Assembly (NCBI GenBank): GCA_965178125.1
Contig: OZ237763.1
Coordinates: 186,001 to 250,000 of the forward strand
DNA: 64,000 nucleotides
Source of the DNA: Bilabrum cf. latius
Taxonomy: Eukaryota
Reading direction: 5' to 3'
Position 1 is the first letter of the stretch. Each line of letters opens with the position of its first letter. The position numbers and the translations under genes were made by a program. The notes beneath the pieces were generated by a model. It searched no databases and was not told where the DNA came from. It worked only from the letters and a program-made list of their open reading frames with translations. Of the stretch, positions 12,001-57,145 are shown one piece after another.

Positions 12001-12414
12001 CAAGTGCCCGACCTGGCTTCCTGGGAGCTCTTCCGAAATGCGTACGGTGACATGGCGCAGCATGTCGCCTAGCTGCGGGCCGAGAATTCGAGCTTGAAGA
12101 AGGACGCCGCCGGTGCGGAGACCGTCATGTCGGCTCGAAGTGGAGCCATGGGCGGCACTAATGCGTCCGGTGGGAATGTTCGGGTGCGCAACCCTCTGTC
12201 TCAGCGCAAGAGGCGCACCGCATTTGGGCCTCAGTCGTCCTCTGGCAACCCCGGAGATGAGTCAGGATCGGTTGCTGCTGCTGCAGCTGCCGGGAAGCCG
12301 ACTGCTTCGAGCTTGAAGGGTCTGAGGCGGGGATCCAGGCGTGGGTCGAAGCGAGCACTGATGGCCACTTCGCCGTCGAGTGGTGGCGACGCTGCCTTGG
12401 ATGGCTCCTCGTGA
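1..12414 (+). CDS. Giant multidomain surface membrane protein, 5'-partial, at least 4137 aa: F-type lectin, Kelch, sushi, FN3, ConA/LamG-like, cadherin repeats, IPT/TIG repeats, Cys-rich region, multi-pass TM C-terminus
   Basis: Ten ORF-track fragments lie in one frame, joined by 9 TAGs (1147, 1537, 2398, 4366, 6541, 7276, 7753, 9874, 12070); the first other stop is TGA at 12412-12414. Motifs: Kelch MFLFGG/LVLFGG; FN3 LIPGLSPDTSYRFDVAA; cadherin LDYE, DVNEPP, DVNDAP; repeated IPT 'TxGGxxVTIxGxNFG'; multiple hydrophobic helices after about 10410. Confidence 0.9.
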
Positions 12415-23200: not shown

Positions 23201-24385
23201 GGCGGCGACGTCATCATCGGGATGACTCAGACGGTGGCCGACTCGGACCTGCCCGGGTCGCAGGCCCGTGGGATCAACCGCAAGGACGAGAGCGTGATGC
23301 TGCGGCAGACGGAACGGGGCGTGGTGGATCAGGTGCTGCTGACCACGGGCCCTAGCGGGCAGCGCTTCACCAAGGTGCGGATCCGCAAGGTGAGGTACCC
23401 GCAGCTTGGCGACAAGTTCGCCTCGAGGCACGGGCAGAAGGGGACGATGGGCATGCTGTACAGGCAGGAGGACATGCCCTTCACGCGCAACGGCATCACG
23501 CCGGACATCATCATGAACCCACACGCAGTGCCCTCCCGCATGACCATCGGGCACATCGTGGAGTGCCTCATGGGCAAGCTGCTGACCATGCTGGGCTACG
23601 AGGGTGACGCCACGCCCTTCGCCAGCAGCGACCTTTTCTCCGTGGACAAGGTCAGCGACGCGCTGCACGATAGGGGCTTCCAGAGGAACGGCCTGGAGAC
23701 GCTCTACTGCGGGCACACGGGCCGGGCCCTGGAGGTGCCCATCTTCATCGGGCCCACGTACTACCAGCGGCTCAAGCACATGGTCGACGACAAGATCCAC
23801 TCGAGGGCGAGGGGGCCCACGGCCCTGCTCACCAGGCAGCCCCTCGAGGGCAGGTCCAGGGGGGGAGGCCTGCGGTTCGGAGAGATGGAGCGCGACTGTA
23901 TCCTGTCCCACGGGTCTGCCGCCCTGCTGCAGGAGCGCATGTTCATCAACAGCGACGCTTTCAGGGTGCACGTCTGCGAGTCGTGCGGGCTATTCGCGCA
24001 GGCCGACCTCAAGCAGCAGTACTTCGAATGCAAGGCCTGCGGGAGCAACAAGATCGCCCAGATCCGCATCCCGTACGCCTGCAAGCTGCTCTTCTAGGAG
24101 CTCATGGCCATGCAGATCGCAGTCCGGATGTTCACGGACGAGCGCACCAAGGCGGACGAGCCCGCGCCGGTGCCTGGTGCCATCATCGAGAGCGGCGACC
24201 CGCTGGCGGCTGCAGCGGGTGGTGCAGCTGCCGCGGATGCCGGTGGAGAAGTGCCCGCCGGGACACCGCAGCCGGGAGCGGACATTGCCATGGGCTTGGA
24301 GGGTGCCGCCCTCATGGAAGACGGCGATGCCGCGGGCGGAGACTTGGGCCACGAGGACCTGCTGGCCGGCGAGATGGCGACCTGA
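20231..24385 (+). CDS. RPB2: DNA-directed RNA polymerase II second largest subunit
   Basis: Motifs GGYFIING, DDRDHFGNKR, GDKFASRHGQKG, RLKHMVDDKIHSR, GLRFGEMERD, PYACKLLF[TAG]ELMAM. TAGs at 20384 and 24095; TGA at 24383. Start is ATG 20231 or 20285. Confidence 0.97.
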
Positions 24386-36200: not shown

Positions 36201-37796
36201 CAGGCAGTCCAGGAGGCCCTGCCCCGGGCCCACAACACCGGGAGCGATCCTGGCGTACCTGGGGTCATCCCCGGCCTCCCCTATGGGGGGCAGCAGGGCG
36301 AGGAGAGACTCGCTCGCACCCGCGCCCTGCCTCGGGCACGTGTCCGGCTCGGCGGGCACCAGGGCCGGTCCGTGCCTCCTCACCGCGCGGTGGGCGGCCC
36401 GCCACATGCAGCGCACTGCACTGGCGAGGGCGCTCGTGGCCGCGATCTCCTCCGCGTATGCTCCCTTCCGTATCCTAGGCACCGGCTCTGCGTGCCCCAT
36501 TGTCTCTGCTGCTGCTCCTGTCTCGGCACCAGCCAGGCGAGCCCGCCTCATCGCACGCCTCTGCTGACGCTTGCGGCCTGCCGCCGCCGCCGCCCGAGCC
36601 ACCCTCTGGCCCACCTCGGCCCGCCACCTCCTCCCGAAATGCCCGTCGCTGGCAGCCCACTGCGCCTCCTCTAAAAGAAAATCCCAGTGCGCCTTCTTGG
36701 GCAGTGGCTCGTGTCTCCTCACCGATAGGCGCTTCCCCGGCGCCCCCCTGTGGACCACCGACAGGCGCTCGGACGCCTCTGCCCGCCTCTTAAGGAGGCT
36801 GCGGAGGACAGAGGCGGTGGCCCAGGCGCGGGAGCGGAACCTAGGCGCCGCGGCGCCCTCCACCACGGCCCTGAGGTTCGCGTCGTTCGCGGCAGGGCTC
36901 CACTTGAGGGGAGGAGGCAGAGGCAGGCCCTCCCTCGTGGCCTGCCCCGCCGCCAGCTGCCTGCCGGCCCGCCTCAGCGCTGACTGGAGCTGGGTGATGG
37001 CACGGGACCGCAGGCGGGCCCTGAGCCACGGCTGCTGTCCCGATAGGGGCGGCAGCCGCTCCGGTGCCGGTGCCGGTGCCGGGGCAGGTGCAGGGGCAGG
37101 TGCGGGGGCCTGTGGCGGAGGGGGCTGCGGCATGGATTGGTGTGTAGGTGCTGCGGCAGGCGCCGCGGCCGACCCCGGCGGCTGTGTGCTGCTAGATGAT
37201 TGCGCATGCCCCCCCGCGGATGCGGGTGCGGTGGTAGAGGCCGGCAGTGCCTGTGCAGTTGCATGGGCAGCAGCTGGCGGAGGTGGGCCACCCTCGCCAT
37301 CCATGGGCTAGCTAGGAGGCGCATGGGGCTGTGACTACCCACCCGACTGCTCCAGCGCTGCCCCTGTCTGTTCTGTCGCCTCTCCACCGTCGCCGCTACC
37401 AGCTCCTGATCGGCCAGCATCAGCCCCAGCTTTGTCGTCCTCTGCATCGTCTCCTTCAACAGATCCGTCCCTGCAATTACAGCATAAGAACAAGATGCAC
37501 ATGTATTAACAGTCACCGGGTGCATGAGTACGAAATTACGCCCAAAGAGGAGCAATCGCTGAAACAAGCGCTGCTGGGCAAGTATTTCAAGCAGTCGGGC
37601 TGCTAAACACGACTCTAGCACCTCGCAAAAAGAAAAAAAATGCCACTCATGCCCCCAAAAGCCATCATATACTGATTTAAAAACATTCTGGCAAGGTCGG
37701 AACGACAGAGAAGCATTCATGGCTGAGAACCAAGACCCCGTACCAATGCCAAAGAGGCACCACTCACCTCCTCTTCCGTCCGGATCTGCGCCTCAT
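27288..37796 (-). CDS. SWR1/p400/PIE1-like protein (HSA, degenerate split SNF2 helicase, SANT/Myb-like), about 3400 aa
   Basis: HSA-like EPLPKKAHWDFLLEEAQW; SNF2-like LRPVQLAGLRWL...LGDERGVGKR; helicase-C-like SGKLQVLDALL...GRRVLL and LATEGSVEEGVL; SANT-like WHDWEEELL...RNNRQCYDRH. Exons 37796-37768 and 37470-27288 (GT-AG intron). TAGs at 37335, 37308, 35193, 34044, 32028, 31626, 31338 and 29586; TGA at 27288. Confidence 0.8.
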
Positions 37797-38055
37797 TTTT
37801 GTCGGCAATGAAGGGGCTTATGAGTGACCCGATTGATATATATGGATCAAGATTAGCTGCTTGGCGGCAGAGGCGTGATTCCTCTCCCCGCAGCGCTCTC
37901 AGCGCGATGCAAGCCACCGATGGAGGGCCAGCCTTGCCTCTCGAATAGCTTCAAAATCCGGTTTTGTGTTTTGTGCCGCCGCCTAAAATGATACTGTACA
38001 ATTATTCTCCGCCCCGTTTAAATCACAACAGGTATCTGACGCATCTGGTCCAGCA

Positions 38056-40085
38056 ATGAGCTCCAGTTCTTTGAGCAATGCTTTATTGTCTCATTTGTAG
38101 CGCTCTGGTACCGTTGATCAAGCCCGGGCTCAGATGAGAGCCCAGCTTGTGGCCCAGCTACGCGGCCGCCCAATATCAACTGCAACCGCAGCATCTATCC
38201 GTCGTACCACTGATGCCATGGGGACTAGGAGCGATTGCCTTGATGCAGCTGCTGTTGCTCACGCACTTGCCCGCGCATTCGCCCTCGGTCCCACCGAGGC
38301 CGTGCTGGACGCCGAGATGAAAGCTGCATGTTGCGATTCGGACAGGCCGTCTGTCAATCGCAGTGCGCGCGAGGTTCAAAGCACTGTAGAACGCTGGATT
38401 CACGCAGCATGTCCTCAGCCACTGCCACCTGGGTGCTCGGACACGGCCGGTCACCGTCTGCTGATATTCCTGCGCAGAGCTGGTTCGCGGCACCCGTCCG
38501 AGTCTGGTATGCGTGATGTGTTTGTCCAGACAGAGCCGACCAGTGCCCTCGAACAGCTCGATCAAAAAATGGACGCGGTTGCTCGCCAGTTCTAGCGCAA
38601 GGCGACGGCAGCTGGGGAAGATGCGGCATCTGCGGACAAGCCCGAATCTGGCACCCGCATTACGCAAGACGAGATCGAAGCTCGAGCCCGAGACAAGATA
38701 ACCGTGGAACTCGCTGCGAGGACCCGTTCGCTTGAGTCACAACTTGATGCAAGGCTGCAATAGTCTCTGGATGCTTGCAGGAAGGAATGCAAATCTCAAG
38801 TCGAGAGAAATCAAATTGAGTGTGAACAACGGATCGCAGCGATGCGCACTCAGGTAGAGAAAGCAGAATCAGCACTTGCCATGCAACGTGAATCTTATGT
38901 GCGCAAACTTGACGCCCTGAGGATTCGGGAACAGTCTGTTGCGGCAGCGGAAGGTGAGAATTATTTTAGACTGCGGCTTGGTGCCAATAGTGCCTATGGC
39001 GATTGAATTCCTCCTTCATGCCACCTCTCAACCAGTCAGCTAGTTGGGTAAGTTATTTTTGCCAACTGGTATTTTATTTGTTACTTACTTAAATCTGATA
39101 CACAGATTCACTTCAAGAAAAGATTCGTCGGTAGCAGCAATCGTATTCAAATTAGCTTGGCAATTTGAAGAGTAGAGAAAGCGATGTCGATCGACTGGAG
39201 CAAAGATTCCAATCAAGGCAGTCAGCAATCGAACGCTCTATACGAGGGGAGATAGAGGCTGAAATGAGAGAGTAGAGGTCAAGGGTCGAGCTGCTGCGGG
39301 CTGAGGCCGACGAAATTGTCCAATCAGAAAAAGAAAGAGTCTAGGAATCGCAACAGTAGCAAGAGAAGTACGAGCAACTTTCCGATTTGCATGCTTCAAT
39401 TTGTGGTAAATACGATGCCTGTAGAGACGAGATTCAAAGGCTGCATGCTCTTGTTAAGTCAAAAGACAAAGCAATTATTGGAATGCAAGAGAAGCTGCCA
39501 TAGGCTGCTGTGCTGATGCGAACTCAGTAGAATAACAGAATCTTGTCATAGTCGCTTGTCACGATCAGTGTAAGTTTATGTACAAGTATTGATTTGTGTT
39601 CACCTTGCATTTCAATATCTTATGAAAACTTGAAATTGACAATTTATTCTGCAGAGAAAGCTGAAAGAGCTGAAATTAGATCTTTAGGAGGTACGAGCAG
39701 CAGCTGATGGGTCATTTGAGACTGAAACGTCAATTTTGTCATCGGTTATCGAGTCTGTAAAGCAAAAGCAGGCTGCTCTTTTGACTCATTGTAAAAGACA
39801 CAAGAAGGCAGCAGCGGACATCGAGGATTTGATGGACCGATAGAAGCTTGCTTTTCAGAAGCAACAGCGCGACTTATTGTAGCAAGGTAAGGGCAGCATG
39901 GATTTATTATTTTGTGTTCATTTGTTTTAGAGTGCATGAGATCTATCCAGATTGCTTTGATTATTTTTGCAGTCGAGTTCTACAAGAGGAAGCAGTCGGA
40001 CGCACAGGCTGTAAATGAATCTCTAAAGGCAAGCTTGAAGCAATTGTCGAGTCTACTGGTTGATGCTGGAATTCATGCTGAGTGA
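38056..40085 (+). CDS. OFD1-like centriolar LisH/coiled-coil protein (about 570 aa)
   Basis: N-terminus LLSHLQRSGTVDQARAQMRAQLVAQL and VQTE...LDQKMDAVARQF resemble OFD1, followed by a long coiled coil. Exons 38056-38953, optional 39036-39047, 39106-39569, 39655-39886 and 39973-40085, all GT-AG and frame-consistent. About 14 in-frame TAGs; TGA stop. The OFD1 identity is from remembered motifs only. Confidence 0.65.
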
Positions 40086-40095
40086 TTTTTACCAA

Positions 40096-41633
40096 TCATC
40101 CACGAATCGCCCGCTGTAGGGTTAGTGAGTACACATCAACTTGCTTATAAAGTTTAAGCTATCCTTGAAGACTCTCGACTTCACGCCTCAGGTCGTCTAC
40201 TTCTCGGCCATATTCAACCTTCGTGCTGTGCAACCTGTCTTCGAGGTGTCCAATGGTCTTGCGAAGGCCATGGATGCATGAATTGGCTTCTTGGAGATCC
40301 CGGGAAGAAACGGAACGTAGCTGTTGAACTACTCTTGAGTTTGACGCTTTTGTAGCTGCTATGAGGGCAGCACGTGCATCATTCTTAGATTCAGTTGCAG
40401 CTGCTTTTGAATCCATGATCTCAAGCCTGGTCTGCGTACACAAAGCAAGAATAGGAATTTGTTATTTAAGAGTGCAAGCTTATTAAAATACGAAAGCCAT
40501 TGCATCAACTATGAGTCTCACATCATTGAGGTGCTAGCGTAACTCCCTGAGCTCCTGCTCATACTTGAAGCTAGATTCGCGAGCATCATCGTTGCGTTTC
40601 AGTGCCTGTTCCAACTACTGCCGACAACCGGTGAGATCTTTACGAGCCTATTGAATCGAAACTTCGAATTTGGATCGCTCATCGGCTTGCTGAGTTTCCA
40701 GGCGAATAACCTGAGGGACATTTGCACAGAAGAACAACTCAGTATCAAGGCGATATTCAATGAAGCGTCCTACACATAAACGTCATGATGCACTTGATAT
40801 CTACATCTTACGGTGCTGCGCGACTGTTCGACTTGCGCTTGCAATTTTGCATGCATTGACTGGTATCTACCGAGATCTTCCACCAGCTGTTTGACTGTTG
40901 TCGGCAGTTCAGTTGCGATATTGCTAACTTCATCATACAAATTGCAGGCTTGAGCATGAAAGAGAGACTGCTGCACCACAGACTGTAGCGATTCTGTTGC
41001 CTTTTGTGCATCAACAGCCAGCCTTCCTGCTTCCTCTCGCCTTCGGGTCTGTTCGTCGAGCTGCTCTCGCAGGTGGCGAATCTTGGACTAGCGGTCATCG
41101 AGCTCCTATTCCAACGCAGCAATCCTCTCCGCGTTAGCAGAAGATGCAGATCCGGACGCCCTGGTCAGCTGCTCAATCTACGAAGAGGCGCTCTTGAGCT
41201 GCTCATGCAAGTCTGACTTTGTACTGTTCCATTCGGCACGATCGGCGGCGTGCTCGCGCCTGACCCTGCTCAGCTCTTTTTCCAGAGAAGCTGTCATGGC
41301 ATGCGCAGCTTGATTGTCATGCTTCAACTGGGCATTTTCTGACTCCAGCTGCTGCATGGCGTGATCCAATCGACTTGCTTGACCGGTCAACGAGTCTTGC
41401 GTCCGATGCCACTCCGCTCGTTCGTCATCAACCTGCTGCTCAAGCTGTTCGAGTGCTTCTTCGAGCTACTTTGCTTCCTACGCACTCGACTGCAGCGATA
41501 CGACCTCGTCTTGAAGCTGTGACACCTTGTGCCTGAGGTCTGCAGCTTCCTACGAATACGACTCCAGGCCTGCACGCAGCCGATCTAGCAGAGCTGCCTG
41601 AGGGGACGAATCTTGCTGATGCGGAGATTGCAT
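40096..41633 (-). CDS. Coiled-coil protein of unknown function (about 448 aa)
   Basis: Exons 41633-40812, 40710-40522 and 40431-40096 with GT-AG introns in a consistent frame. Continuous E/Q/L/R-rich heptad pattern when about 10 TAGs are read as Gln; TGA at 40096. Confidence 0.75.
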
Positions 41634-41965
41634 GATGCGGGATAAATAAAAATTCGCGGATGCAGGCAGCAAAACCCCGCACAGCAAGATCTTGTGCTGA
41701 TCTTGGCGGCGGTTGCCGTTGCGCGAATTCGGACGGGCTCCGAGTCTGCGGTAGGCACGATCGAAATTTGCACTTTTTTTACACCATGAGTTTGCAAATC
41801 TTTCAGGTGTGACCCCTGGACTCTGACAAGTTTATATTACTCTCCTCCTGCCTTGGGTGTGCAATGTCCTTTCGTATAGAATCTGTACTCCGAAGCCTCA
41901 ATTATTCCAATAATCACTTCACGTTTGGGCTACAGGGACCGTTTCCTCAAACCGTACCATGCCTC

Positions 41966-44900
41966 TCACAGGTCGTCCATCAGATCCGCGAAAGGATCAG
42001 CCGAGGCAGCCTTCGGGGCTGGGGCTGGAGCAGGCACTGGAGCAGGCCCCGGCATCCCGCCCATGCCCATGCCCGCGCCTCCCCCCCCACCGAGGGAAGG
42101 CATCGGGGCAGGAGCAGGAGCAGGAGCCCCCAGACCAGCAAACGGGTCCCCGGAAGAAGCGGCCCCGCCAGGTGCCTGTGCGCCCCTCGGCGCCGGCGCA
42201 TGTGCCGTGGAGGGTCCTCCGCCTCCTCCCCCCAGATCAGCAAACAGGTCAACCTCCGCGGGCGCGGGCCCGGGCGCCGCAGACGTGGAAGGCCCTGAGG
42301 ACGCGGCTGTGCCCTTGCCCTCAAGCTCGTCGAAAATGTCGCCTCCCATGCTGGCAGAGGGGGCCGGGGCCGGCGCGGGCGCGGGTGCCGGAGCCGGGGG
42401 TGGTGCGGCCACCGGCGCCTGGAACCCCCCGAAACCGCGCGGGGCCTCGACGGGCGCGGGTGCGGGTGCCTGGAAACCCCCGAACCCCCGGGGTCCCCCG
42501 GTGGCACCCCCCACGGCGGGTGGGGGCACTGTGTCGTCACCCCCCTCCAGCATCAACGTAGGCGGCGCGCCGCCGGTGGGCGACCCCATGTCGTGCGGGT
42601 CTGGCATCGCCCCCCTGGCCCCCCCTCTGGCCGGCGTAGACCCCGCGCCCGCCCCTCCCGCCGCCACGTTCTTCAGCAGCAGCGTGGCGGGCCCCTTGTC
42701 GGCGTCGGTGAGGAAGTAGTCTCTCGTGTCGTTCTTGGAAATGAAGAGGTCGTGCTTCTGGTGCTTGTACTTGGACCAGTCTCCGCTCCTCGACGACAGC
42801 TGCGCCGATACCCTTTCCCCGTGCACAGAGTCCCGCTCCAGGAGCTTGATCACCTCGACCGCGTGCACCTTGCAAGCCCCGCTGTTGACCACCTGCTCGA
42901 GGTTGAACTTCTCCAGGATGTCCAGCATCAGGGGGACAGCACCTTCGTTCAGTGCAGCCAGTGCGTGAGGGTGATCGGGCCCCGCCACGTGCTTGGCGTC
43001 CTGCTCCAGCAACCTCCGGATGGTCTCCACGGTGAAGCTGGCATCCCTGTGCGGCTCCGGCTTGATGGATCTAACCAGCAGCCCGCACGCGCTGCCCTTG
43101 CCCAGGGCCCGCATGCACTCGGTTGAGGGCGCAAGAACCTCCACGAACCGGATCGCCTGGATCATCAGGTTGTACCTCGACGGCTTGCCGATGCTCTGAC
43201 GGAGCAGGGACAGAAGCTTAGGGACGTACCCCAGCTGCACCACCTGCCCGCCCATGGACTTCCTGGCTCGCAGCAGGCACACGAGAGCATTGGTGACCTT
43301 GGTGAGCACGTCCTCCCCCCTGATCACGAGGCTCCCCTCCTCCCCTCCCTTCCCCTTGGAGGACTGCCCGCCCGCCTTCTCCTCCCGCTCGGCCTCCTCC
43401 TTGGCCGCTCGCTCCGCTGCCCTCCTCTTCTCCTCGTCCGCACTCGTCATACCGATCAGGTGCTCGCCCTCTCTCTGGAAGCGCCTCAGCAACGCCTCCA
43501 GGAAGCCCCTCGGGTTCCGCAGTGGGAAGGTGGGCTCCTTGATGAACAGTCGCACGTACACCCCGCCCACCATCAGCTCGCCCTTCATGGGCCGGTACAC
43601 GATCCTAAAGGTGGCGGGCAGCGACTGCGGATGGCCATCCGCGCCGCCGGGCTTGCCGGCCTTGGCGGCGCGCTGCCTCGCCTGCGTGAGCGACTGCCCG
43701 ATCTGACCCAGCGCCCGCCTGAGCTCGTGCCTGCAGACACCGTCCCAGATGAGTTCGGGCGTCTCGTGGTCGCCATCAAACACACGCACGGCCTCGCCCA
43801 ACGAACTCTCCCCGCCAGCACCCGCGGCCCCTTGCCCCACGCCGCCTGACCCCACCGCGGCCCCGCCCGCCACAGTGGACGCCGCGATCGACTCCTTGAT
43901 GCTCATGGCCAGGTTCTCGGGGACCAGCTGCCGCAGCGCCATCAAATTGGGCGGGCCTTCCGTCGAGTCGGAGCACATCATGCTGAGAAGGGCGCCAGCC
44001 TCGAAGCGCGCGGGCCTTGGCACCTGTAGCTTGGGCGTCTCACGGATGTCTGGGCCTCCGGGCTCACCGGGGGCGGGGCCCTTGGCGATGCCACCCGCGA
44101 ACATGGTCACGACGTCAATGATAGAGCACACGCGCCGGGCCTCGGCAATGATCACCTGGTGACTGAACAGGGTCCGCAGGAGCGGGCCGATCCCGGTCGG
44201 GGCCGCAGGTAGCATGCGCAGCAGGGGAGGCACGAGGTACATGCCGGCCAGCGTCTTGGCGAACCGTTCGTTGCTGGCGCAGGCAGCCAGGCAAGCCAGA
44301 GCCAGCTCCCGGAGAGGTGCGTCCGCCTCGGCAGCCGTGCTGCGTGCCCCTCCCATGCCAGCGCTGGCACCCGACCCGGCCCCCGTCTTGCCGAACTCCG
44401 TGGCGGCCTGCCTGGCGTTGTGCGCCGCCTGCGCGTCCTCGAGCCTGAGAGTGGCCATGAGGTTGGGCAGGTACCGAGCGGTGGCCGGGTTGCCGATCTC
44501 CTCCTCCACACCGGCGTTGTGCACCACCACGCCGTGCAGGGCCCGCAGTGCCAGACGCAGGTGCGGGATGGACACGTCTGCCGGCGTGCGGGCGCACATC
44601 TGGTCCATCTCCTCCTCGAACTCCTCCTGCTCCGACTTGGGCGCGGGGGAGTCCCCACTGGCTCCTCCAGCGGCGGCCCCGCCTTCGACGATGCCCCTCG
44701 ACTTGGCCTGCTGCCTCTGCAGGGCGCCGTGCTTTGGCTTCTTGATGCCCGGCAGCTTGAGCCTGGGTCCCGCTCTCGACATGGCAATGTAGGCCATGAG
44801 GCCGCGGAGGAAGGCGTGCGGGTTGTCCAGCGTCAGGGTCGGATCGCTGACGAAGAATCGGACGAAGAGACCCTCGATGCACAACTCGTCCGCCAGCGCG

Positions 44901-47900
44901 CTGTGGTTGAACTGTGTGGCTGCATCCGCTTCGGTGCGACCCGTCTCGCTGAGCTCGTCGCAGTGCTTCTTGAGGAAGCGCAGCAGCTCCTTGCGCATGT
45001 CTGCGTTCCACATCACGGTCGGCGACTCCTCGTGGCCCACCAGCGACTTGAGCAGGGAGTCTGGGCTCGCCCTGCCGAGCCTCTTGGCCAGCGGCGGGGT
45101 GATCATCTGCCGCATCATGCGCTGCACCCTTGGGTTCTTCGGGGTGGCCATCTTCTTCTCGTGCGCCAGGTACCCGCCCAGCCGCCCCACGGCCCTCACG
45201 GAGAGCTTGGCCATGTGGTTCGCGGCCTTCTGCTCGTTGGCCACCGTATGGCCCTCCGTGGCAGCCCCTTCCAGGGTCGTGTCGAACCGGAAGAAGAGGG
45301 GGACCAGCCGAAAGAGCGCGCCCGCCTGCACCATCTTGCTCTGCAGCTCTGGCAGCGCGGCGAGCCTCGAGACCATTTCGAGCGCATACTGCATCACCTT
45401 TGCCGCCCGGAGGTACCGCAGGCAGTGCACGATGTTGGTCATCAGAGTGTCCATCTTGGTCATCCTCTCACGGGCCTCGGGCAGCGTGGCCAGACCGCTG
45501 AGCGTGCGCATGACGTTCTCCACCACCCTGAGGCCCAGCTCGTCACCCCGCTTGGGCAGCGGCTTGTCGGGCAGCAGCGCCTTGGTGCCGAAGGGGACGT
45601 CCTTCACCAGCTGACCAAGCAGCTCCGCGAGCGCTTCCGTCCCGTCCTCCCTGACGAGCTCCTCCGCGTTGCGAGGGGAGGTCAGGCACGTGAGGTAGAT
45701 GAGGCGGGTCAGCGCCTCGGCCATGGGCCCGCTGTCTCCGGTGATGGGCGTGTCCTTGGGGATCTGCCGGATGGCCTGCATGACCAAGGGGTACCCCGCG
45801 TACTTGTAAGGCTTGAGCACCTTGGTGTGGCGCTTGAAGAGGATGCACTGCGTGCGGACCAGCAGCAGCAGAGCCACAGGGTCGGGCCCACCGGCCGCTG
45901 CCTCGGGCCTAGAGGTGGTCAGGGCCTCGTAGGCCCTCTGGATCTGCATGAACCTGTCTCTCCCCGCGGGGTTCTTGTCCGGATGGAACTTCCTCGCCAG
46001 CTTGCGGTAGGCCTTCCGGATGTCCGATTCCTCGGTTCCCGGTTCCAGCCCCAGCTCCTTCCAGGCAGCCGTCATGTCCACCTTGTCTTCGTCGGTCTTG
46101 TTGGTCTCCAGCCTCCAGTTGTCGAGGGCCGCGCGAAGCAGCATAACAGGGTCGTCGATGTTCCACTCCGGGAAGCGCTGCTCGTCCGTGAGATTGCGAA
46201 GGTAAAAGTTCGAACACCAAAGCTCCTCGTCGAGCTCCTCGTACTGCACCCGGGGGATGGGGCAGTAGTCGTAGATGGTCGCCGGGTTGGCCCTCAGCCT
46301 CGCGGGCAGCTCGCCCAGGTGCTGCGAGATCATGTCAATGAGCTGCCCCCGCATGGCATACTTCCAGATCACCTCCGGATTGTCCACGTCGGACAAGAAG
46401 GCGTTGGCGAAGACCTTGGGCCCCCGGTTGGCTAGCACGCAGATGATGGACTCGGGCAGCATGGCGCCCAGGATGCTCCTCCTCCCCAGCGTGGTCTCTC
46501 TGCCCAGGGAGGCGGCCTCGGAGAAGAAGGACTGCCGCAGGTGCGTGGCGTGCAGCAAGGCAGCCGCGTGGTCCCAGTTGCTGCCCGGGTAGGCCAGCAG
46601 GAAGAAGAACAGGCCGGTGGTGTACAGCTTGACCGTGGCGCGGGGGTTGAAGCTCACCACTTCGTTGATGAGCTGGCACACAAGGTCGGTCAGGGTGGCG
46701 TCTCCTGCCAGCACGGCCTGCGCCAGGTGCGGCATCACCCGCTGCGACGACAAGATCCGCTTCACCTTGGGGACGGGTCTCACTGGCACCCCCTCCGTGT
46801 CGACGGACGGCCTCAGCCTGGCCAGCCTGAGGAGGATGTTGGCGCAAGCGATGCCCCTCTTGGAGGGAGACATGCCGGGCTCTCCCGGCGACAGGGCGAA
46901 CCACATGAGCGCCCGCATGGCGTCCATGCGCACCCACTGGCGCATGCCCTGGGCCCACACCATGGTGGACTTGCTCAGGTGGCCGGCCTTGGCAGCCTGC
47001 TTCATCTGCTGCAAGGAAAAGGGGCCCTTCTAAGCCTCCTTGCCAGTCTTGCCTGCCGCCTGGAAGTGCCACACCTTGGCGCTCTCCTTAGACCGGCGAA
47101 GGGCCGCTGCAGCAGCGGCCTGGTCTGCTTGCGTGGGTCCCCCTGGGCCGCCTGCGCTGCCAGCGGCCGTTGCCGAGGCGCCCGCGTCTGCTCCCGCTCC
47201 CGATGCCGCGGCGCTCTCCTGCCCCCTGCGCTCCGCCTCCGCCGCAGCAAAGTCCTGGTCGGCGTCGCCCAGCAACATGAGACCGCCCCCCTTGCCGCCG
47301 CTGCCCAGCACGGGCATGACCCTCTGGTCTACCTCGGTGGTGTGGGCCGTGGTGAGTAGGTCCACGATGAGCTCGATGCAGTCCTGATTGATCAGCTTCT
47401 CGCAGTTGACGGGGTGCGTGGACAGCGCTGCAACCAGCTGCAGCAGGTGGTCCCTGACAGTGGCGTGGTCCTCCTGGGCCAGCAGCCACACCATGTAGTC
47501 AGTGTCCTCGAAGGGGCCGATGGCCTTCCAGTGGTGCGTGTACACCCGCTCCATGCCCATGAGGCACATGGACCGCAGCTGCGGGGCCGTCTCGCGGAGC
47601 ACGCGCCGGTACAGCGCATCAAAGAAGCTAGAGGGTTCTCGCAGCGCAGCCACGGCAGCTCCGCCTCCCTCTAGGAACACGCGGAGGTACTGGTCGCCCA
47701 CCCGCAGCTCCTGCGCCAGCGAGGGGTAGTCCACCTCGAACTCGCTCCAGTTCCATGCCAGCCTGTACCTCCCCACAATGGCGGTGGACTCGCCCTCCTT
47801 CCCCTCCTCGCCCTCTTTGCCCTCCGAGGCACCCGCGCCGCTGGCCGCCTCTTTCACGCCGGCGGCCCCCTGCACGTTGTTGGTGACGTTGCCCTCGGCC

Positions 47901-50673
47901 CCGTCATCCAGTGCCACCACGCCCCCCTGGACGATCTCCTCGTCCACCTGCTTGAGCTCAGCCTCAAGTGCCGCCCGCAGCTCGGCTCTCTGCTCCGCGC
48001 TCCACAGCAGGTCAGCGATCGAGTGGTCCTGGGAGATCTGAAAGAAGAGAGTGGTGTAGTTCTCGTGCTTGCCGTCCCCTCCGAGCTTGCTCAGCGCCAG
48101 CTCCCTCTCGGCCTGGACTGCCGCCTCGGCCGCCTTCATGGTCTGCCTCTCCTCGGCCTCCCTCTCTTCCATGGAGGGCCCGTTGAAGATCGACATGAAG
48201 CGCTTGCCCACGGTCATCTCGCCCTCCTTGATGGCAGCCAGCCGGCGCACCACCTTGTTCCGAGACGCGTAGTCCGCGGCTTCCAGGCGCCGACGCAGCC
48301 TGCCGGCCAGCCCGCTGCGGGCCGCGGCCTCTGCAGACACACCACCGCTGCCGAGGGGGCCGGTGATGTCGCCCGCCCCGGACGCGGGCCCCTTGCCACC
48401 GGCCAGCGGGTCCCTGCCCACCGCGATCCCGTCGTCGTCCCCTCCCAGCTCCGCCTTGATCTTGGTCGCCTCCATGGCCTCGAGGCCCTCCCGCTCGGGA
48501 GCGGAGAGCTTGGGCATATCAAGGAACACGAGCATGCCCTGAGGGAACATGTGCCGCAGCAGGGTGTGTGCCGTGGGGTTGCCGGTGCACCAGAGCTCCA
48601 CCAGGTACCGGCTCACGAACCGCTGGTCAGTGGATGCGTGGAAAATACCGTTGTAGAAGTGCCGCAGCAGCACTCCGCTGCTCAGCGCGGCCCTCTGCAT
48701 CTTGCGCACCGTCCCCGAGTCTGCCCTGTGCACGATGGCTCGGCACAGCATCGCGGCGCACTCCACGATGCTGGGCACCTGCGACCTGAAGAGCGCCAGC
48801 ACGGAGCCGTACTGCGCCGCCACCAGCCGCATCATCTGGTTGTTGGCTTCCTCGGGCGTGGTATCCACCCCGCTGATGATAATTGCGTCCAGCAGCTGCA
48901 CCAGCCCCAGCATGACCAGTGTTCCCTCGCTGGACCTGCTGGCAGCCATGCCCGTGCCCGAGGCGTGCTCCTCGAGCAGTTTGGCAAGCCGCAGGCGAAT
49001 CTCGGGCTGCGAGAGAGAAGATAAATATGACAGGAAACTGTTGGTATGAATGCGTGCAGCAACAGAAGAAGCAAGCAATCAGCGGTAGGGGCGGCGCGCT
49101 TGGATGAGCCGCAGTGGGCGAGCCAGATCAAAGGCAGAGAGCATCTCACGGTGAGCATGGTCATCTTCGCCTGCTGCTCGAGGTCCTCGAACTGCCCCTT
49201 GGGCCGCTGGGGGTTCCTGCACACGGTGTGGATGCAGTTGAGCGCAGCAAGGACCACTGCGTCGTCCTCGCTATCGAGGCACACAAGCATGCTTGGCACC
49301 AGCGTGGGGTTCTTGATGATGACCTGCTGGCCCTGCTGGGAGCCAGCCAGCCTCGCGATAGCCAGCAGCAGCATCACCAGCACGGTGGTCGGCACGCTTT
49401 CTGCCGCTGCAGGGCTCACGCACCGCGCCAGCTGGGCCAGCAGCCCCTGCATGTTCCCGTACACGAGCCCGTACCTTGTCCCGAAATCGATGCCCACGCC
49501 CTTGGTGTTGATGACGAGTGCCTGCGCCACGCGCAGCACGTCAGGGTCGTATGCCGCCCCTCTGGACCCGGTGGCCTTGCTGATGGTCGCATCGAGGTGG
49601 AAGAGGAGCTGCCCCTCGAGGGCGGTGTCCACCTCCGCGGCCCGCCTCACCATCCTCAGGCCGGTGGAGGGGGCCTGCGACAGAGGCATCAGCCGAGTGT
49701 CGACGCTGCACGTGCGTGCCCCGTCCACGAGGCATGCGATCATCTCGTCTCTCTTGGAGCACACGTAGTCCCGCCTGATACCGTCTGTGAACTCGATGAG
49801 CAGCCGCTGCGGCTCGGACCAGTGCCTCACCACCGCCCTCACCTGAGAGAGCGGCCGGGCGGATACCACCTGATAGCTGGAGTCATCTCTCTCGATAATA
49901 GTCCTCTCTGTCATAAGCACGCGGCGGGAGTGGCCCCGCGGGTGCCTGGCCGACGTCTTGATCACCTCGAACTCGGCCACCCTGGCCGCGCCGTCCACGC
50001 CGTGCTTGGCCATCGCGGTGCGGTACTTCCCGTCCGTGATACCGGTGGCGGACAGCACGGCCCCCAGCCCCAGCTTGGCCAAAGCCAGCTGCGCCGCCTT
50101 CAGCAGGTCCTCCCGACGAGGTGAGGCGAACTTCCTGGGGCGGCCTGCCACCCACACCGCGATGGCGGACTTGTCGTCAGTGAAACGCTGTATCCGCTGC
50201 ACGCGGGAATACCGGAACCTGGACACGGCCGTCCCCGACCGCTTGTCAATCATGACCAGCTCTCCCGGCCTCACGTCCAGCACGCAGTCCTGCCTCTCCG
50301 AGGTGCGCGTGACCTTGACCGCGGGGAAGGCACGGCCTGGCTTGTCCCCGTGCAGGTGCACAGCGAGGTCGCACAGCAGGTCCCCGCGAGCGTTGGATGC
50401 GAATCGCATTACTTCTGTAGAGGATCCATTCTTGAACGTTACGGTGAATTCCTCCGGGGATGACGTGTTGGGCCCGTAGTCGAGCACCTCCTCCCGGAGT
50501 GTCCACGCATTCGTTACCTGGAACTTGGCCGGGTCCACGTGGATTAGCGTGCTGGGCGTGAATCCGAACACGCGCTAGTACCTGCCTCGCCATGTGTGGA
50601 TCTTGGAGGCTTGGTGCTGTGAATGCACGTCTATCGAGAAGGCCGACGCGCCTTTCAGCGAAGACGTCGACAT
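41966..50673 (-). CDS. DNAJC13: RME-8/DNAJC13 endosomal J-domain protein (about 2854 aa)
   Basis: N-terminal HTWRGRY[TAG]RVF; IWN-type repeats (LLWS, VIWK, VMWN, LIWD); GYF_2-like WHF...[TAG]KGPFS; J-domain IRKAYRKLARKFHPDKNP; PYKYAGYP. Exons 50673-49150 and 49006-41966. TAGs at 50575 and 47030; TGA stop. Confidence 0.93.
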
Positions 50674-51179
50674 TACCGTTCGCGGTAACTGCTGAGCCCA
50701 ACTGTAAAACGGCTGATAGTAGTGTGCCGTCTGTTTTCTTCAGCAAGGTTCAACTTTTTGCCAGGCAATAATTTGGTATCCAAGCAAGCAAGGAGGCCGC
50801 GTGAGATGATGCAACCCGCGCTGCTACCCTGTACCTCTTGGTTTCCTGGAGATCGAGACAAGTGGATTCGCTCAATCAAGTGCGAGCTCCTTGCAGGCAA
50901 TCTCGGGCGCAAACCCCCAGTCTTGTACAATTCGAGCGATTTAACGAAAGATATTTCGGACGCATTAAAATCGATATATTTTATTGTACAGTGCAATATA
51001 GTTGAGTGGATGACTTTTGTCCTTACTCCCGCCGTAGAATGGAAGGTGAAGCGCTACCTGCACACTGATTCATTTTACAGTGCATGGGTTGTCGCTTGCA
51101 CCGCCTGATTTGTATGTAGATCGACCATTTCGAGGTTTGAACTCGCGTCTGGTCGGGTCGAGCCTTGGCTATCAACGGC

Positions 51180-52253
51180 ATGTCCATGCTTGACCCTGCC
51201 CTGTCGTCTCATGAATATTTTAGTCATGGATCATCGCTACATGCCGCACACTCACGCCTGGTCTGGATGCGAGACTTCGTCGCGGCGTACGAGGAGCTCG
51301 ACAGTTCTGAAATGGGGTCCGCAAGATCTAGCGGTAACCACAAGCGTTCAAGCGGAGACTAGCAGCAATCGATAGATATCCGCAGAGTCTAGCGGCTCCA
51401 AGCAAGGAGTGCCAGGACCTAGTCTGCGAGGCAAGCCAGCACATTTGCTACGTTTCACCGGCTGACATCGCCGGCGAGCCTGAGAGAGCTTCCAGAAACA
51501 GCATACAGCATTCGATAGATGCGTTACGATGCATAGAAAGAGTAGGAGGCGTGCTTTCTCGCTGCTCCTGTTGCATCGCTCCCAGAAGTGATCCTCACGC
51601 CGCGGGTGAGGCCAGACCCGAGCGATGCGGTCGCACCGACTGGCAGCCGGCTCAGCGTGGGCGGCAGTGGGAGGGTCAGCTGGGAGCCGGTGCGGCTGCG
51701 CCCCAGGGAACAAGTACCAGCTGCTGACGAGCTCGTGCGTCGCTTGCTGGGGACTGGCCCAGGCGGCAGCGGTATCTAGGGCGAGGGCGAGGGCAAGGGA
51801 GAGGGCGAGGGGCTGGGCACCCAAGGGTAGAGAAGGCGGGCGGCCGCCACTGGCAAGGGCCCACGGGGTATGACTCGCCGGCGTGGTGCTGAAGGAGGTG
51901 CTAGTGGTGGGCATGTGAGCCATAGGAAGGGAGGGGGCTTATCTCGAGGCTGGCCAGAAGAGGACGAGGACGAAGATGAGCAGGATGAGGAGGATGATTG
52001 CGATGGCGATTGGCTTGCCTTGGGAAGGCAGGGCAGCAGCAGAAGCAATACCGGTGGGGATGGGCTGCATAGTCGCGGCCCTCGACATCTACCCACGATA
52101 ACCGCTGGTTCTGCGTCTGATCAGCAGCGGAGCAGAGGCGGCCGTGGCGGGAGGGGCAAGGGGAGGACGGGCAGGAGAAAGGATATGATCGGGGCTAGGG
52201 CAGTGGATGAGGCGCTCATGGCGCTCCTTCGAGCAGATTTAGAGGATGGTTAA
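51180..52253 (+). CDS. Hypothetical protein (about 357 aa) with acidic and RG-rich C-terminus
   Basis: Three ORF-track fragments in one frame, bridged by 8 TAGs with no TAA or TGA until TAA at 52251. No recognisable family. Confidence 0.6.
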
Positions 52254-52820
52254 AGTTACCTTGGTATTGTGTCGCACTGCATTGTTCATCTCCTGGTTGA
52301 TCACCATTGCGGTGGTCAGAGCCTGTTTCGCAGTAGAATTTGACAAGTCTCTAGGTCTGCATCCCGCTCCATGGCTCAGACAGGACTATTCAATTGCCCC
52401 ATTATCGTCTATACAGGGTCGATCGCGCGCTACTCGTCTAGTGTTGGTCGAATCTCTGTCCTCTCTGGGCGCTGCGGCAGCATTGGGCCCAAAACCGATG
52501 CTTGGCAATGCAGCCTGCTCAGCATTGCAGCTCGAACCCCGGAACGAGTGCACTGCAAGCGTGGGTACACCAAATGGCACCCTGTCGCGGGTTGTAGGAT
52601 GAACAGGGCGCACCATAAGCACTGTAGCATGTGTTGCTACATGCCACCGACCTTATCAGCTAGCCCTGATATTGCTGATCCGCGGCACAATAGACACTTT
52701 GAACAGCCCGCATGAAACTCGGTAGCGTACAGACTCGTGCTAACCATATCATCTTCAGCCGTGGCGTGCATCTTCCCTTTTCTGCAAACCATACTGTAGT
52801 ACTGGGGCCTATCGTCCGGC

Positions 52821-53102
52821 TTAGCCTTTCTCTCGATCTACAATTCCAATGCGCACATGCAAGTCAGGACCGCCCATCATCTTCAGCTACTTTTCTGCTT
52901 TCCTCATCATGTACTCAATTCTCTTGATATCGAACCTCGAGACAGATTCTGCTCCGTGCCGAAACGAAGTCCGAACATAGTGGATTGCATCGAGTTTGGA
53001 GTCCTCCCCATTCTTTTCATAGGCCGCCCGCAAGCATCTTCGGTACAAACCAAGCACTTGCTTCTAAAATCCTGATAAACGTCGCGACTGCCGAGCTGGC
53101 AT
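52821..53102 (-). CDS. SDHAF1: Succinate dehydrogenase assembly factor 1-like LYR-motif protein (93 aa)
   Basis: Translates as MPARQSRRLSGF[TAG]KQVLGLYRRCLRAAYEK...YVRTSFR...FDIKRIEYMMRKAEK[TAG]LKMM...; LYR motif and the SDHAF1/Sdh6 pattern (SGLQ..VL.LYR; IEY..R....QL). TAGs at 53064 and 52887; TAA at 52821. Not present as an intact ORF in the track. Confidence 0.85.
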
Positions 53103-53238
53103 GGGGCGATATGACTGAGTGATTTGCACTGATTTTGCTGAGGTGGCGTCATCGTCACACATCGAAGCCGGATGCAGCTGCTTTGCACGGCCCACACAGG
53201 CCCGTGCAGCGCGCAAACAGGCAACGAATCGCCCCGAA

Positions 53239-56200
53239 TCACTTCCCAGCCACCCTTGAGACCTGCACCCGCTTCCGCCGCCGGGGCACAGCCGGCTTGT
53301 GAGCGCCCTTCCACGGCAGCAGCAAGTCCACCACGGACTGCACCAGGGGCCAGGACAGCGGCGTGGCACGCTCGTCCGCTAGCAGCGGCATCACCATGCG
53401 GACCGCCGTCCACACCGTGAGGTAGGCCTATTTCAGCGAGGCGGGCGTGGGGAACGGCAGCAGAGACTTGCTTACGGAGCGGCCCACGATGGTGAGGAAG
53501 TGCGCGGTGAGGAGCCCGGGAGCGGGTGACAGCGCGGCCAGGAGGTGGATGGGTCCCGCGAGGCATGCCCCTCCAAGCCTCATGTAGTCAAGGAAGGCCT
53601 GTTTGATCGTCTGCTTGGTCTCCCGCTCCGGCCCTTCTTCACCGGGAATGCTCAGCACGTCGTACATGGCATTGGCCAGCACGTTGACGGCGCTCGCGTG
53701 GTGCACCCGCCTGTCCTTCCACTCTGCCAGGGCGAGCCCCAGGGCCGACGGGTCGCCCAGGTCAACCTAACCCGTGGTTACAACCGGTTCGGACAAGTCC
53801 TTCACGCCCTGGTTCCGCAGATCCTCCAGGGTGGCGCCGCGCAACGCGTCTGCGAGCGACTCCGAGTCCATGAGCGCAACCGACATGCCCCCTCCGGTGA
53901 TGGGGTGCCTCATGTTCCAGGCATCCCCCAGCAGCACCACGCCGGACGCGCCATTGCCGCTGCCTTGTTCCTCCGCCTCGGGGGCCACCGGCAGGTACCT
54001 ATTCCCGCACGGCTGGGGCACAGAAGTGTCCAAAGCGGCCCTCGCTGCCTCGCGGAAGGCTCCCGCCGGGAACTGTGGTAGGACGTGGTTCCGCAGATGG
54101 GCAGTGAGGCTGCTGTCTTTGACCACCTTCTTGACCCTGGTGCCCGGCTTCAGGCCGGTGACCGCGCCCTATTCCTCAGCGCACTACTCCTCACCATCCT
54201 CCTCGCTTCGCTTGCTCTCCCCACCCTCTGCTCTCCCCCTGTCGCCCACGTCTTCGGTCGCCATCTCCTTGGACTCCTCCTCGGCGTGCACACCGCCTGT
54301 GTGGGAGCTGGAATCGCCCTCGCCTTCCTCCTCCTCGAGGGGCACGTACACTCCATCATCGGAAGGCAGGAGGTTGGGCACATCGATGAGCAGCCGAGTG
54401 GCGCAGGGGCTGACCTGGTAGGCCACGTGCGGGCTGGGCTCGGCCAGGAAGAGGTTGGCCCTGTACCTGTAGGGCAAGGGGGACTCCATGGGAGGGTGGT
54501 GCAGCACGAGGCCCACAAAATGGCTCACAATCCTTGGCTTGGCACTCGTCACAGTCCCTCTAAGACCGGAGAACATCCCATCAGCGATGACCACCATAGG
54601 TGCGTACACCTTCCGCTCCACCGACTCCCCGGCCTTCCTCCAGCGCATCGCGAAGGCGCGGCCCTCTCCATTCTTCGATCCCGAGTCGTTGTTCACGGCG
54701 GATGCAATCTGCCGCGCGACCCTCTCCGCCGCATCAACCTCCTCCCCGGACATCTCCCTGCCCATCGCATCCTGCTCTGCCTGCACCAGCGCCTGCAGCA
54801 CGCCTCTCGCGTCACCTTCTGCGGCCGCCCGACCCACCGCGTCTTTCAGCCCGACACCCGCCGCTTTGACCACCCCGAGGGCCCTCCCGGCACACAGCCG
54901 CACGTTTTGTTCCCTGAAGGCCAGCCTCCTCAGCCCTGCCACGAACCGGTGGTTGTGGAAGGACCGGCCCCGGGGCATCTCGTCCACGCCCCACGCCACG
55001 GGCTCCCCCTCGCCGAGATGGGCCCCCGCCCCGTTGCCCCCGGCCCCGCCCAGTGCGGCCAGTGCCCTTGCGTGCTCCTCGAGCATCTGCTCGCCCACGT
55101 CAAGCTCGTGCTCCTCTTCCGGGGTGCCTACGCCCGCCTCCTGAGCTGCGGCCAGCTGCTGCGCGACTCTCCTGGCATCGGCCGCCAGCTTTTCTTGTTC
55201 TGTGAGGTGGACCCCGAACCCAAAGTGCTGCGCCTCGTTGTCCCCCGGGTCTGCCGTGGAAAAATTCATCACGATGGTGCCGTCCACGTGCTGGTCGCGG
55301 ACCGCCGTGCCGCGCGTGATGCTCGACTTGATCGCGCCGCGGTCGTCTTCGGAAAGTTTGCCATTGGGTTCGGCCATCGGAACCATAGTGTAGCCATCCG
55401 CTCTGATGCTGCGGGACCGGCCGTCTTTGCATGCGTCCGCGAGTCCCATGCGCTCCAGGGCCCGGACGCCGCCAGGCTGCAGGAACTCGCCAACAATTCT
55501 CGGCTGCGAGCAGGTAGAAACAAGACCATAAGCAAGACGCGGACTTGTTGTGTTGTGGGATAGCGTGTCCAGGAGCGACAGCAAGTATACACTTGGTCGC
55601 ACAAGGTCGCATGCGACCAGTCGCTGCGATCCCTACCACAGTCGACCCTCTAGCACGCCAAAACCACAATAAACGAAAGGATTACCTCTCAACGCACGCG
55701 GCAGGAATGCCCAGAGTCGGCAGGAAACGACAAGATGCGGCCAATTGCCATCGGGTCCCACTTCCGCAAGACGCAAATCAAGGTCGCATTCAAATACTAG
55801 TACGAAAACGACTCACCTGAAGCAGCAAAGTTCCTTCTATAAGAGCAACCTTTCGTCCGTCTCGCGCGAGACGGGCCGCCAGCGTCGATCCGGCTGTACC
55901 AGCGCCAACAATAACGACATCGGCAAACGAAGTAGGATCTCCCGAGGTCTCTGGCGAGTCAGACTACGCGCGAAGGGTGCTCGCACGATGACGCAAAGAT
56001 GCAGCTTCTTGACTAGGCACTGAATCTGCGCTTTGCTTGCCAGCAGCTTCCTGGGCCTCCTGAATAGCGGTAGCTACCGCGTCGGCAAAACCACCGACCG
56101 CACCTCCCGCGAGTCCAGCCGCACCTGCAGCCAGGAGCCCAAGAGCCACTGGCATGTCGACAAATACGAACGGATATAACACAAGTAGTGCGGCAGCTGC

Positions 56201-56374
56201 GAGGCCTGCCAGGGTGGCAGAAAGGAATGCGCGGCAGACGGAGCAACCGACCGCAGCGCCGAGCATCGCGGCAAAGCTCAGCGCACCTGCCTGGATCCCA
56301 GCGATATGTCCAGCCCCAGTGGCAAGTGCCGATATTAAAACTGGTACCAGAACTCCATAGCGAGGGAGGCGCAT
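53239..56374 (-). CDS. SQLE: Squalene monooxygenase/epoxidase with N-terminal membrane segments and insertions (about 940 aa)
   Basis: Motifs DVVIVGAGTAG, RIVGEFLQPGG, GRSFHNHRF, IADGMFS, SHFVGLVL, LLGDAWNMRHPITGGGMSVAL, NVLANAMY. Exons 56374-55817 and 55503-53239. TAGs at 55964, 54184, 54169, 53767 and 53428; TGA at 53239. An additional upstream exon is possible (AG just before the ATG). Confidence 0.92.
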
Positions 56375-57145
56375 CCTGCGGAACGCCTCGGAGCCCAGGA
56401 TACCGTGAAATGGAGCAATGCGCGGACGTCGCTTTGGGTCAAGTCTGAATTAGCTGGACTGTGTCTTAAGGTGCACGCAATTCGGGGCGTGACCACGGGC
56501 GTGCTTGGAATTGGAGACTACACGCTGCTTGTCGACTATTGTGCGCAGAAATCGTGTCGCATTCGTTGGCATGCACCGCCAGCAACAAAGCCACAGATAG
56601 ACCGACACGATGCCCCTAGGCGGGGCACACAACGAGGCCGCTCGTCACGCGAGACGTAGAGCAGCGAGATGGGAGAGGCGAAAGAGGGCCCATAAATAAA
56701 ATAGACCCGCTTGGAACACCCACTCCCTCCCACCCGCTCACGACCCAAGACCCGGGGCCATGCACGGGGCCGACGCCAAAGGCACCCCCCCCGAGAAAGG
56801 GGTGCTGGCGACAGACCCATGGCGCGCATGGTCCGAGCCCGCAAGCGCTCAATCGCACCGAGCCACCGCACCTGACCCGCCCCACCCGGACGCGCATCCC
56901 CCGCCCCGACTCATGACAATGAGGGAGGCAGGAGGTGCACGCGTCGGGAGAGAACGAGGCCTTGTGGCAACGGCTTTTTGGCTCATGCGCGAGGTGCTGC
57001 TCGCCTACCCACTCGTCACACCCAGGGAACAAAGTAATACAGCCGGCCATCCTCCGTCCGCCAACACTAGATCTACCACGCTCCTGCACTCGTCACACAA
57101 ACACCGCCCTGCAGCCCCTACCCGTCCTATCGCGCGGCGGACTGC

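Follow-up and report, generated by a model that had tools for sequence, protein, structure and literature searches.

The locus described here lies in a window of 64 kb, by which we mean the whole stretch of DNA that was analysed. This is eukaryotic nuclear DNA of 49-76% GC, gene-dense and with few short introns, and among its genes are those for RPB2, RME-8, squalene epoxidase, a PanB-PanE fusion and a proteasome subunit. On the minus strand, at 52824..53102, an intron-free reading of 93 codons specifies an SDHAF1-like protein that matches the Pfam family Complex1_LYR. Its ATG start (53100-53102) is the point at which the similarity to homologs and to an ortholog begins. The frame contains two TAG codons, read here as glutamine, one at codon 13 in an SGFQ motif (53064-53066) and one at codon 72 within KQLK (52887-52889), and it closes at a TAA, the proposed stop of the gene (52821-52823). 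The next in-frame TGA follows 22 codons past this TAA (52755-52757) and would act as the stop only if the TAA were read through.

The plus-strand reading of 52821..53102 is broken. The standard code yields no more of the minus-strand frame than a 32-aa piece, which stops at the first TAG, whereas table 15 leaves it open from ATG to TAA with both TAGs in frame. The first-pass annotation had claimed a 93-aa LYR protein that standard ORF calling misses, and both parts are borne out, by the short fragment and by the minus-strand frame with its Complex1_LYR match at E 1.6e-11. The start is formally ambiguous, since the table-15 ORF listing contains an alternative in-frame ATG 20 codons upstream (53160-53162), giving 113 aa; the 20-codon extension is conserved neither in the ortholog nor in homologs. 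The possibility that an intron conceals the TAA was rejected too, the homolog alignment being continuous and requiring no exon past codon 89. Mapped DNA-like contigs from four runs showed no joints and no ends of relevance to the gene.

Squalene epoxidase (53239-56644, minus strand) sits between the cofilin gene and the SDHAF1-like gene, its stop only 136 bases upstream of the ATG of the latter. On the other side, a convergent neighbour occupies 51180..52253 of the plus strand; it has 357 codons, eight of them in-frame TAG, and belongs to no Pfam family.

An ortholog on a metagenome contig

A counterpart of the locus is found on the metagenome contig L001, which is syntenic with the window, the N-terminus of RME-8, a PP2A-type phosphatase and cofilin lying around the SDHAF1-like gene. 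The two organisms share 81-94% protein identity, and that of L001 has the lower GC. The SDHAF1-like orthologs are about 80-81% identical over residues 1-89. At the positions of the TAG codons 13 and 72 of the window, L001 has CAA and CAG, and it carries TAGs of its own at codon 5, where the window has CAG, and at codon 65, where the window has ATG. Over the 89 codons the orthologs differ at 23 first, 7 second and 57 third codon positions, so that the frame, its TAGs included, is under purifying selection. The L001 gene ends at a TGA and is eight codons longer, with a tail unrelated to that of the window, and from codon 90 onward the DNA identity of the two genomes falls to about 30% in any register. 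As judged from this comparison, the collapse would fit a short free tail; it does not fix the stop.

The ends of the genes

What, then, can be discerned about the codon at which translation ends? Following K74, the SDHAF1-like protein has a tail of 19 aa, and the family has a median of 22 with a range of 12-71. A read-through of the TAA to the TGA at 52755-52757 would give a tail of 41 aa, also within this range. The family-typical length that the first-pass annotation had put forward thus fits, but it is a weak argument, since the longer tail fits too, and for this reason the SDHAF1-like gene, taken by itself, cannot establish TAA as a stop. The 21 codons between TAA and TGA include one more TAG and have a GC3 of 0.48. 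No conservation follows the TAA, that with L001 ending four codons before it. The wider claim, that this gene demonstrates different meanings of UAG and UAA, holds as far as the difference is concerned, though its basis lies outside the gene and not in its length.

This basis is twofold. First, in the 14 other ORFs of the window, in-frame TAA occurs at 0 of 16,237 codons, against 49 occurrences in the other two frames. Were TAA used, gene by gene, in the ratio of CAA to CAG, one would expect 39.5 such codons, a figure that falls to 13.9 when three coiled-coil ORFs are set aside. The count of zero is taken after trimming of the starts, by which five in-frame TAAs upstream of the first usable ATG were removed (RPB2 codon 67; SNF2 codons 17 and 27; cc1 codon 36; cc3 codon 22). 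Likewise, no in-frame TAA is present in the 930 codons that could be aligned between the window and L001. Second, the convergent neighbour has a single in-frame TAA (52251-52253), which follows a C-terminal motif at a distance of four codons; in the L001 ortholog of this gene (3510-4499, minus strand) the distance from that motif to a TAA is two codons. Compared by eye, 10 of the 13 residues of the motif are identical in the two genomes, and nothing beyond it is alike. The neighbour orthologs were paired by BLASTP over the N-terminal half (E 8e-10); the short C-terminal motif match was not reported by BLASTP. Only these two parts of the neighbour, the N-terminal half and the C-terminal motif, are conserved between both genomes.

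The SDHAF1-like gene and its neighbour are the only two genes of the window that end in TAA. When 120 more ORFs from the unannotated parts were scanned with Pfam, cofilin and three upstream exons were all that was added, and no additional gene ended in TAA. With just two such genes, the half of the code that concerns UAA as a stop rests on a small number.

The alternative that fares best is one in which UAA as well as UAG encodes glutamine, as in NCBI table 6, and the protein runs to 115 aa, ending at the TGA at 52755-52757. It would be accommodated by the 41-residue tail, by the closure of nearly all other genes of the window at TGA, and by the fact that this is the commonest variant nuclear code according to passages of PMC11687900. 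It is nevertheless very improbable in our estimate, as it would have to account for the absence of TAA from all 16,237 codons, where 13.9 to 39.5 would be expected, and from the 930 codons aligned with L001, for a neighbour TAA that, in two genomes, comes directly behind a conserved C-terminal motif past which nothing is similar, and for the lack of conservation beyond the TAA of the SDHAF1-like gene itself.

In contrast to the sparse use of TAA, TGA closes every other gene that was examined: the giant ORF at the window start, the proteasome subunit, the phosphatase, and the genes for Myb, PanB-PanE, RPB2, a deaminase, SNF2, RME-8, squalene epoxidase and cofilin. No TGA interrupts the ORFs of 4137, 3432 and 2370 codons. 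The PP2A-type phosphatase terminates in DYFL followed by TGA in the window and in L001 alike, DYFL being the canonical C-terminus of this family. UGA clearly acts as a stop, and most genes of the window use it.

Several of these genes have features of their own. The giant ORF (1-12411, plus strand) has at least 4137 codons, is open at the window start and contains nine TAGs, no TAA and no TGA; Kelch, fn3, F5/8-type-C, cadherin and many IPT/TIG domains are followed by a transmembrane segment and a cytoplasmic tail, and its product is a giant surface protein. At 17166-19943 (plus strand), PanB (ketopantoate hydroxymethyltransferase) and PanE/ApbA (ketopantoate reductase) are fused in one ORF with four TAGs. 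The 3432-codon ORF at 27291-37586 (minus strand) combines HSA and SNF2 domains, is very rich in alanine and glycine and has eight TAGs; two in-frame TAAs are present, both before the first ATG. RME-8 (41969-50739, minus strand) occupies two frames that overlap, 48835-50739 and 41969-49078, an arrangement that points to a short intron or to a frameshift in the vicinity of 48835-49078.

Family assignment

The Complex1_LYR match, obtained with TAG translated as glutamine, covers residues 14-75 and profile positions 1-59 of 59, with 44.4 bits against a gathering cut-off of 24.8. The HMM check proposed in the first-pass annotation thus recovered the family, and the best named relatives are SDHAF1 proteins. 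A word-indexed protein search with the 93-aa query gave zero matches, but full HMMER did find homologs: against 1.84 billion representative proteins it returned 357 matches at E<=1e-3, 15 of them at E<=1e-10. The ten best comprise two named SDHAF1, one generic LYR protein from Cafeteria roenbergensis and seven without a name. An alignment-profile search extended the set to 451 proteins at E<=1e-5. The name SDHAF1 is borne by 37 of the 120 that were listed; the others are generic LYR proteins, hypothetical proteins or entries without a name, and no other LYRM family name occurs among them.

For the inspection of single columns, the query was aligned with 41 of the 55 best-ranked HMMER matches, 14 split, long or partial matches having been excluded before any column was looked at. 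The protein has the L-Y-R motif (L19-Y20-R21), of which Y20 and R21 are nearly invariant in the 42 rows, and F47, E63 and R67 are invariant. An AlphaFold2 model built on the homolog alignment (mean pLDDT 82.7) predicts three helices, at residues 11-28, 33-53 and 59-76; residues 86-93 fall below a pLDDT of 50. Searched against the PDB with Foldseek, the model has no match at E<=0.001, as is expected for so small a fold. The top 11 matches are ISD11/LYRM4 chains (E 0.03-0.11, TM about 0.6), followed by LYR subunits of complex I.

Could the protein then belong to another LYR family, for example ISD11/LYRM4 or LYRM7? Pfam offers a generic LYR model only, and the similar solved structures are those of ISD11 and of complex I LYR subunits only, with ISD11/LYRM4 sharing the three-helix LYR fold and providing the top structural matches. 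The sequence similarity to it is marginal, however: PDB chains of LYRM4/ISD11 reach 14 bits (E 0.4), against 64 to 69 bits for proteins named SDHAF1, and all 37 of the LYRM-type names among the 120 listed profile matches are SDHAF1. ISD11/LYRM4 also has a different partner from SDHAF1, namely NFS1, according to Table 1 of PMC4381221. We regard an assignment outside SDHAF1 as very improbable. On the side of SDHAF1 (LYRM8, yeast Sdh6), the likeness extends to the L-Y-R motif, the conserved phenylalanine, the IEY..R..K.L stretch, a length of about 90 residues and three helices. What sets the window gene apart is that it is written with two UAG codons and that its short C-terminal tail is unconserved even in comparison with an ortholog of about 80% identity. 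Sequence similarity therefore supports filing the 93-aa protein as an LYR protein of the SDHAF1 type.

The meaning of UAG

At the first TAG, column 13 of the alignment holds glutamine in 40 of 40 homologs that have a residue there. At the second, column 72, it is the plurality residue, with Q in 20 of 41 homologs, K in 10, R in 5, H in 2 and A, M, Y and T in one each. The first-pass annotation had described both positions as conserved glutamines of the family; this is accurate for codon 13 and too strong for codon 72, where glutamine has a plurality only.

The same usage extends over the whole window. In-frame TAG is found 60 times in the 16,237 codons of the 14 other ORFs (11 supported by Pfam, one weakly supported and two without Pfam support), where it makes up about 8% of all glutamine codons, and at least one TAG is present in 13 of the 15 ORFs tabulated. 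In RPB2 a TAG occupies the conserved KLLFQELM position (24095..24097, plus strand) and aligns to glutamine in all four Pol II RPB2 chains among the alignments shown. In squalene epoxidase and PanB, three TAGs fall opposite I, S and R of PDB homologs; these sites are uninformative, as the positions are poorly conserved and the homologs distant. Across the four gene pairs aligned between the window and L001, 11 TAG sites fall within the 930 codons; eight of them face CAG or CAA in the other genome, and the remaining three CTC, GAG and ATG.

A sense meaning of UAG other than glutamine, or not confined to it (glutamate, lysine, leucine or an ambiguous reading), could draw on these three sites, which pair with leucine, glutamate or methionine codons, on the lysine or arginine of 15 of the 41 homologs in column 72, and on the existence of nuclear codes with UAG as leucine or as serine, as passages of PMC11687900 describe. 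We give it very little credence in view of the uniform glutamine of column 13 and of the RPB2 site and of the CAG or CAA partners at eight of the 11 ortholog sites. Weakest is the view of the SDHAF1-like sequence as a dead gene whose TAGs are true premature stops; that the standard code cuts the frame into pieces would agree with it, but every long conserved gene in the window carries an in-frame TAG, so that the remaining genes would have to be dead too, and the L001 ortholog has its TAGs at other codons (5 and 65) with change biased to third positions, by which this view is already contradicted and its probability practically nil.

Factors that would decode UAG were looked for in the same DNA. 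ARAGORN predicted no tRNA gene, neither in the window (64 kb) nor in L001 (6.3 kb), and no eRF1 was seen among the Pfam matches of the window ORFs.

As a separate observation, the use of TAG climbs in the window as GC3 drops. An island of low GC (0.49) at 38000-42000 contains coiled-coil ORFs that are very rich in TAG, one of them (39099-39704) with eight in 202 codons.

Lineage

The best named RPB2 relatives listed are those of Cafeteria roenbergensis and Bicosoecida sp. CB-2014, at 56% identity, and metagenome proteins reach 60%. A quick maximum-likelihood tree was calculated from 31 rows picked from 120 listed matches, a single gene with limited sampling. In this tree the window RPB2 falls inside a ten-row clade with both bicosoecids (SH-aLRT 100) and, within a set of five rows, with Cafeteria (SH-aLRT 97), on a long branch (0.59). 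The organism thus probably groups with the bicosoecid stramenopiles, as a relative of Cafeteria, a genus known as host of a giant virus.

Discussion

What does the locus tell us about the decoding of this genome? The observations comprise the frame and its family, glutamine at the UAG sites, the lack of in-frame UAA and a UAA at the conserved end of the neighbour. We consider it very probable that they reflect an intact nuclear gene of the SDHAF1 type in a gene-dense, GC-rich protist in which UAG is glutamine throughout and UGA and UAA are stops, with translation of this gene ending at the UAA. The organism would read UAG as glutamine everywhere and would have retained UGA, its usual stop, together with UAA. 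With UAG as glutamine and UAA as stop, the SDHAF1 mRNA would be translated through both UAGs, each giving a glutamine, and would end at the UAA. Such a code would call for a tRNA-Gln with the anticodon CUA to decode UAG, and for an eRF1 that no longer recognises this codon.

In organisms where it has been studied, SDHAF1 binds SDHB, and through its L-Y-R motif the co-chaperone HSC20, and it supports and protects the delivery of Fe-S clusters to complex II, according to passages of PMC4381221. By analogy, the product of the window gene may be a matrix protein of roughly 90 residues, located in mitochondria, that would bind the iron-sulfur subunit SDHB. Its L-Y-R motif could recruit, as that of SDHAF1 does in those organisms, the HSC20/HSPA9/ISCU machinery for cluster transfer and thereby serve in the assembly of succinate dehydrogenase.

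The gene is ordinary, and the kind of code is already known. A code with UAG as glutamine and UAA kept as a stop has been described for Iotanema spirale, in which UAA is the primary stop (in passages of PMC5304391), and for the ciliates Hartmannula sinica, Trochilia petrani and Protocruzia tuzeti (in passages of PMC11687900); the latter source also states, where it treats phyllopharyngean ciliates, that UAA closes 86.9-98.3% of their genes. The window resembles these lineages in that UAG widely stands for glutamine and that UAA and UGA are still stops. It differs in that TGA closes nearly all of its genes and TAA only two, whereas UAA is preferred there, in its GC content of 49-76%, and in that its organism, by its RPB2, groups with bicosoecid stramenopiles. 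Lineages that use UAA and UAG alike for glutamine (table 6) are more widespread and include many ciliates, hexamitid diplomonads, some ulvophytes, Streblomastix and Amoeboaphelidium, as listed in passages of PMC11687900. With these the window shares the reading of UAG as glutamine, but in-frame TAA, absent from its 16,237 codons, is found at two gene ends instead.

The literature searched, in its main texts, yielded no report of a code with UAG as glutamine and UAA as stop in a stramenopile or bicosoecid, and a lineage of the bicosoecid type is probably new for it. We propose tentatively, and with somewhat less than even confidence, the fuller statement that this is the first such code in a stramenopile, in a lineage related to bicosoecids such as Cafeteria, that at least two diverged relatives, the organisms of the window and of L001, have it in common, and that the genome departs from all described cases in being GC-rich and in using UGA as the main stop.

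A difference in meaning between UAG and UAA is rare, known from a handful of lineages in the passages of PMC5304391 and PMC11687900 considered here. A further independent case would bear on the retuning of release factor 1 and on codon capture under GC pressure, and this one would stand out as a stramenopile with a high-GC genome whose main stop is UGA and not UAA. There is also a practical side, as annotation of the organism and its relatives under the standard code would truncate most of their genes and lose small ones, such as that for SDHAF1, altogether.

Two minor features of the region may be added. Squalene epoxidase, which directly precedes the SDHAF1-like gene in the window, is missing at the corresponding syntenic position of L001 (2375-3000). 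Within the convergent neighbour, the GC-rich, low-complexity segment at 51778-51811, which encodes a part rich in glycine and glutamate, draws many unrelated contigs in all four runs, at a depth of 400-800, a repeat-like mapping artefact.
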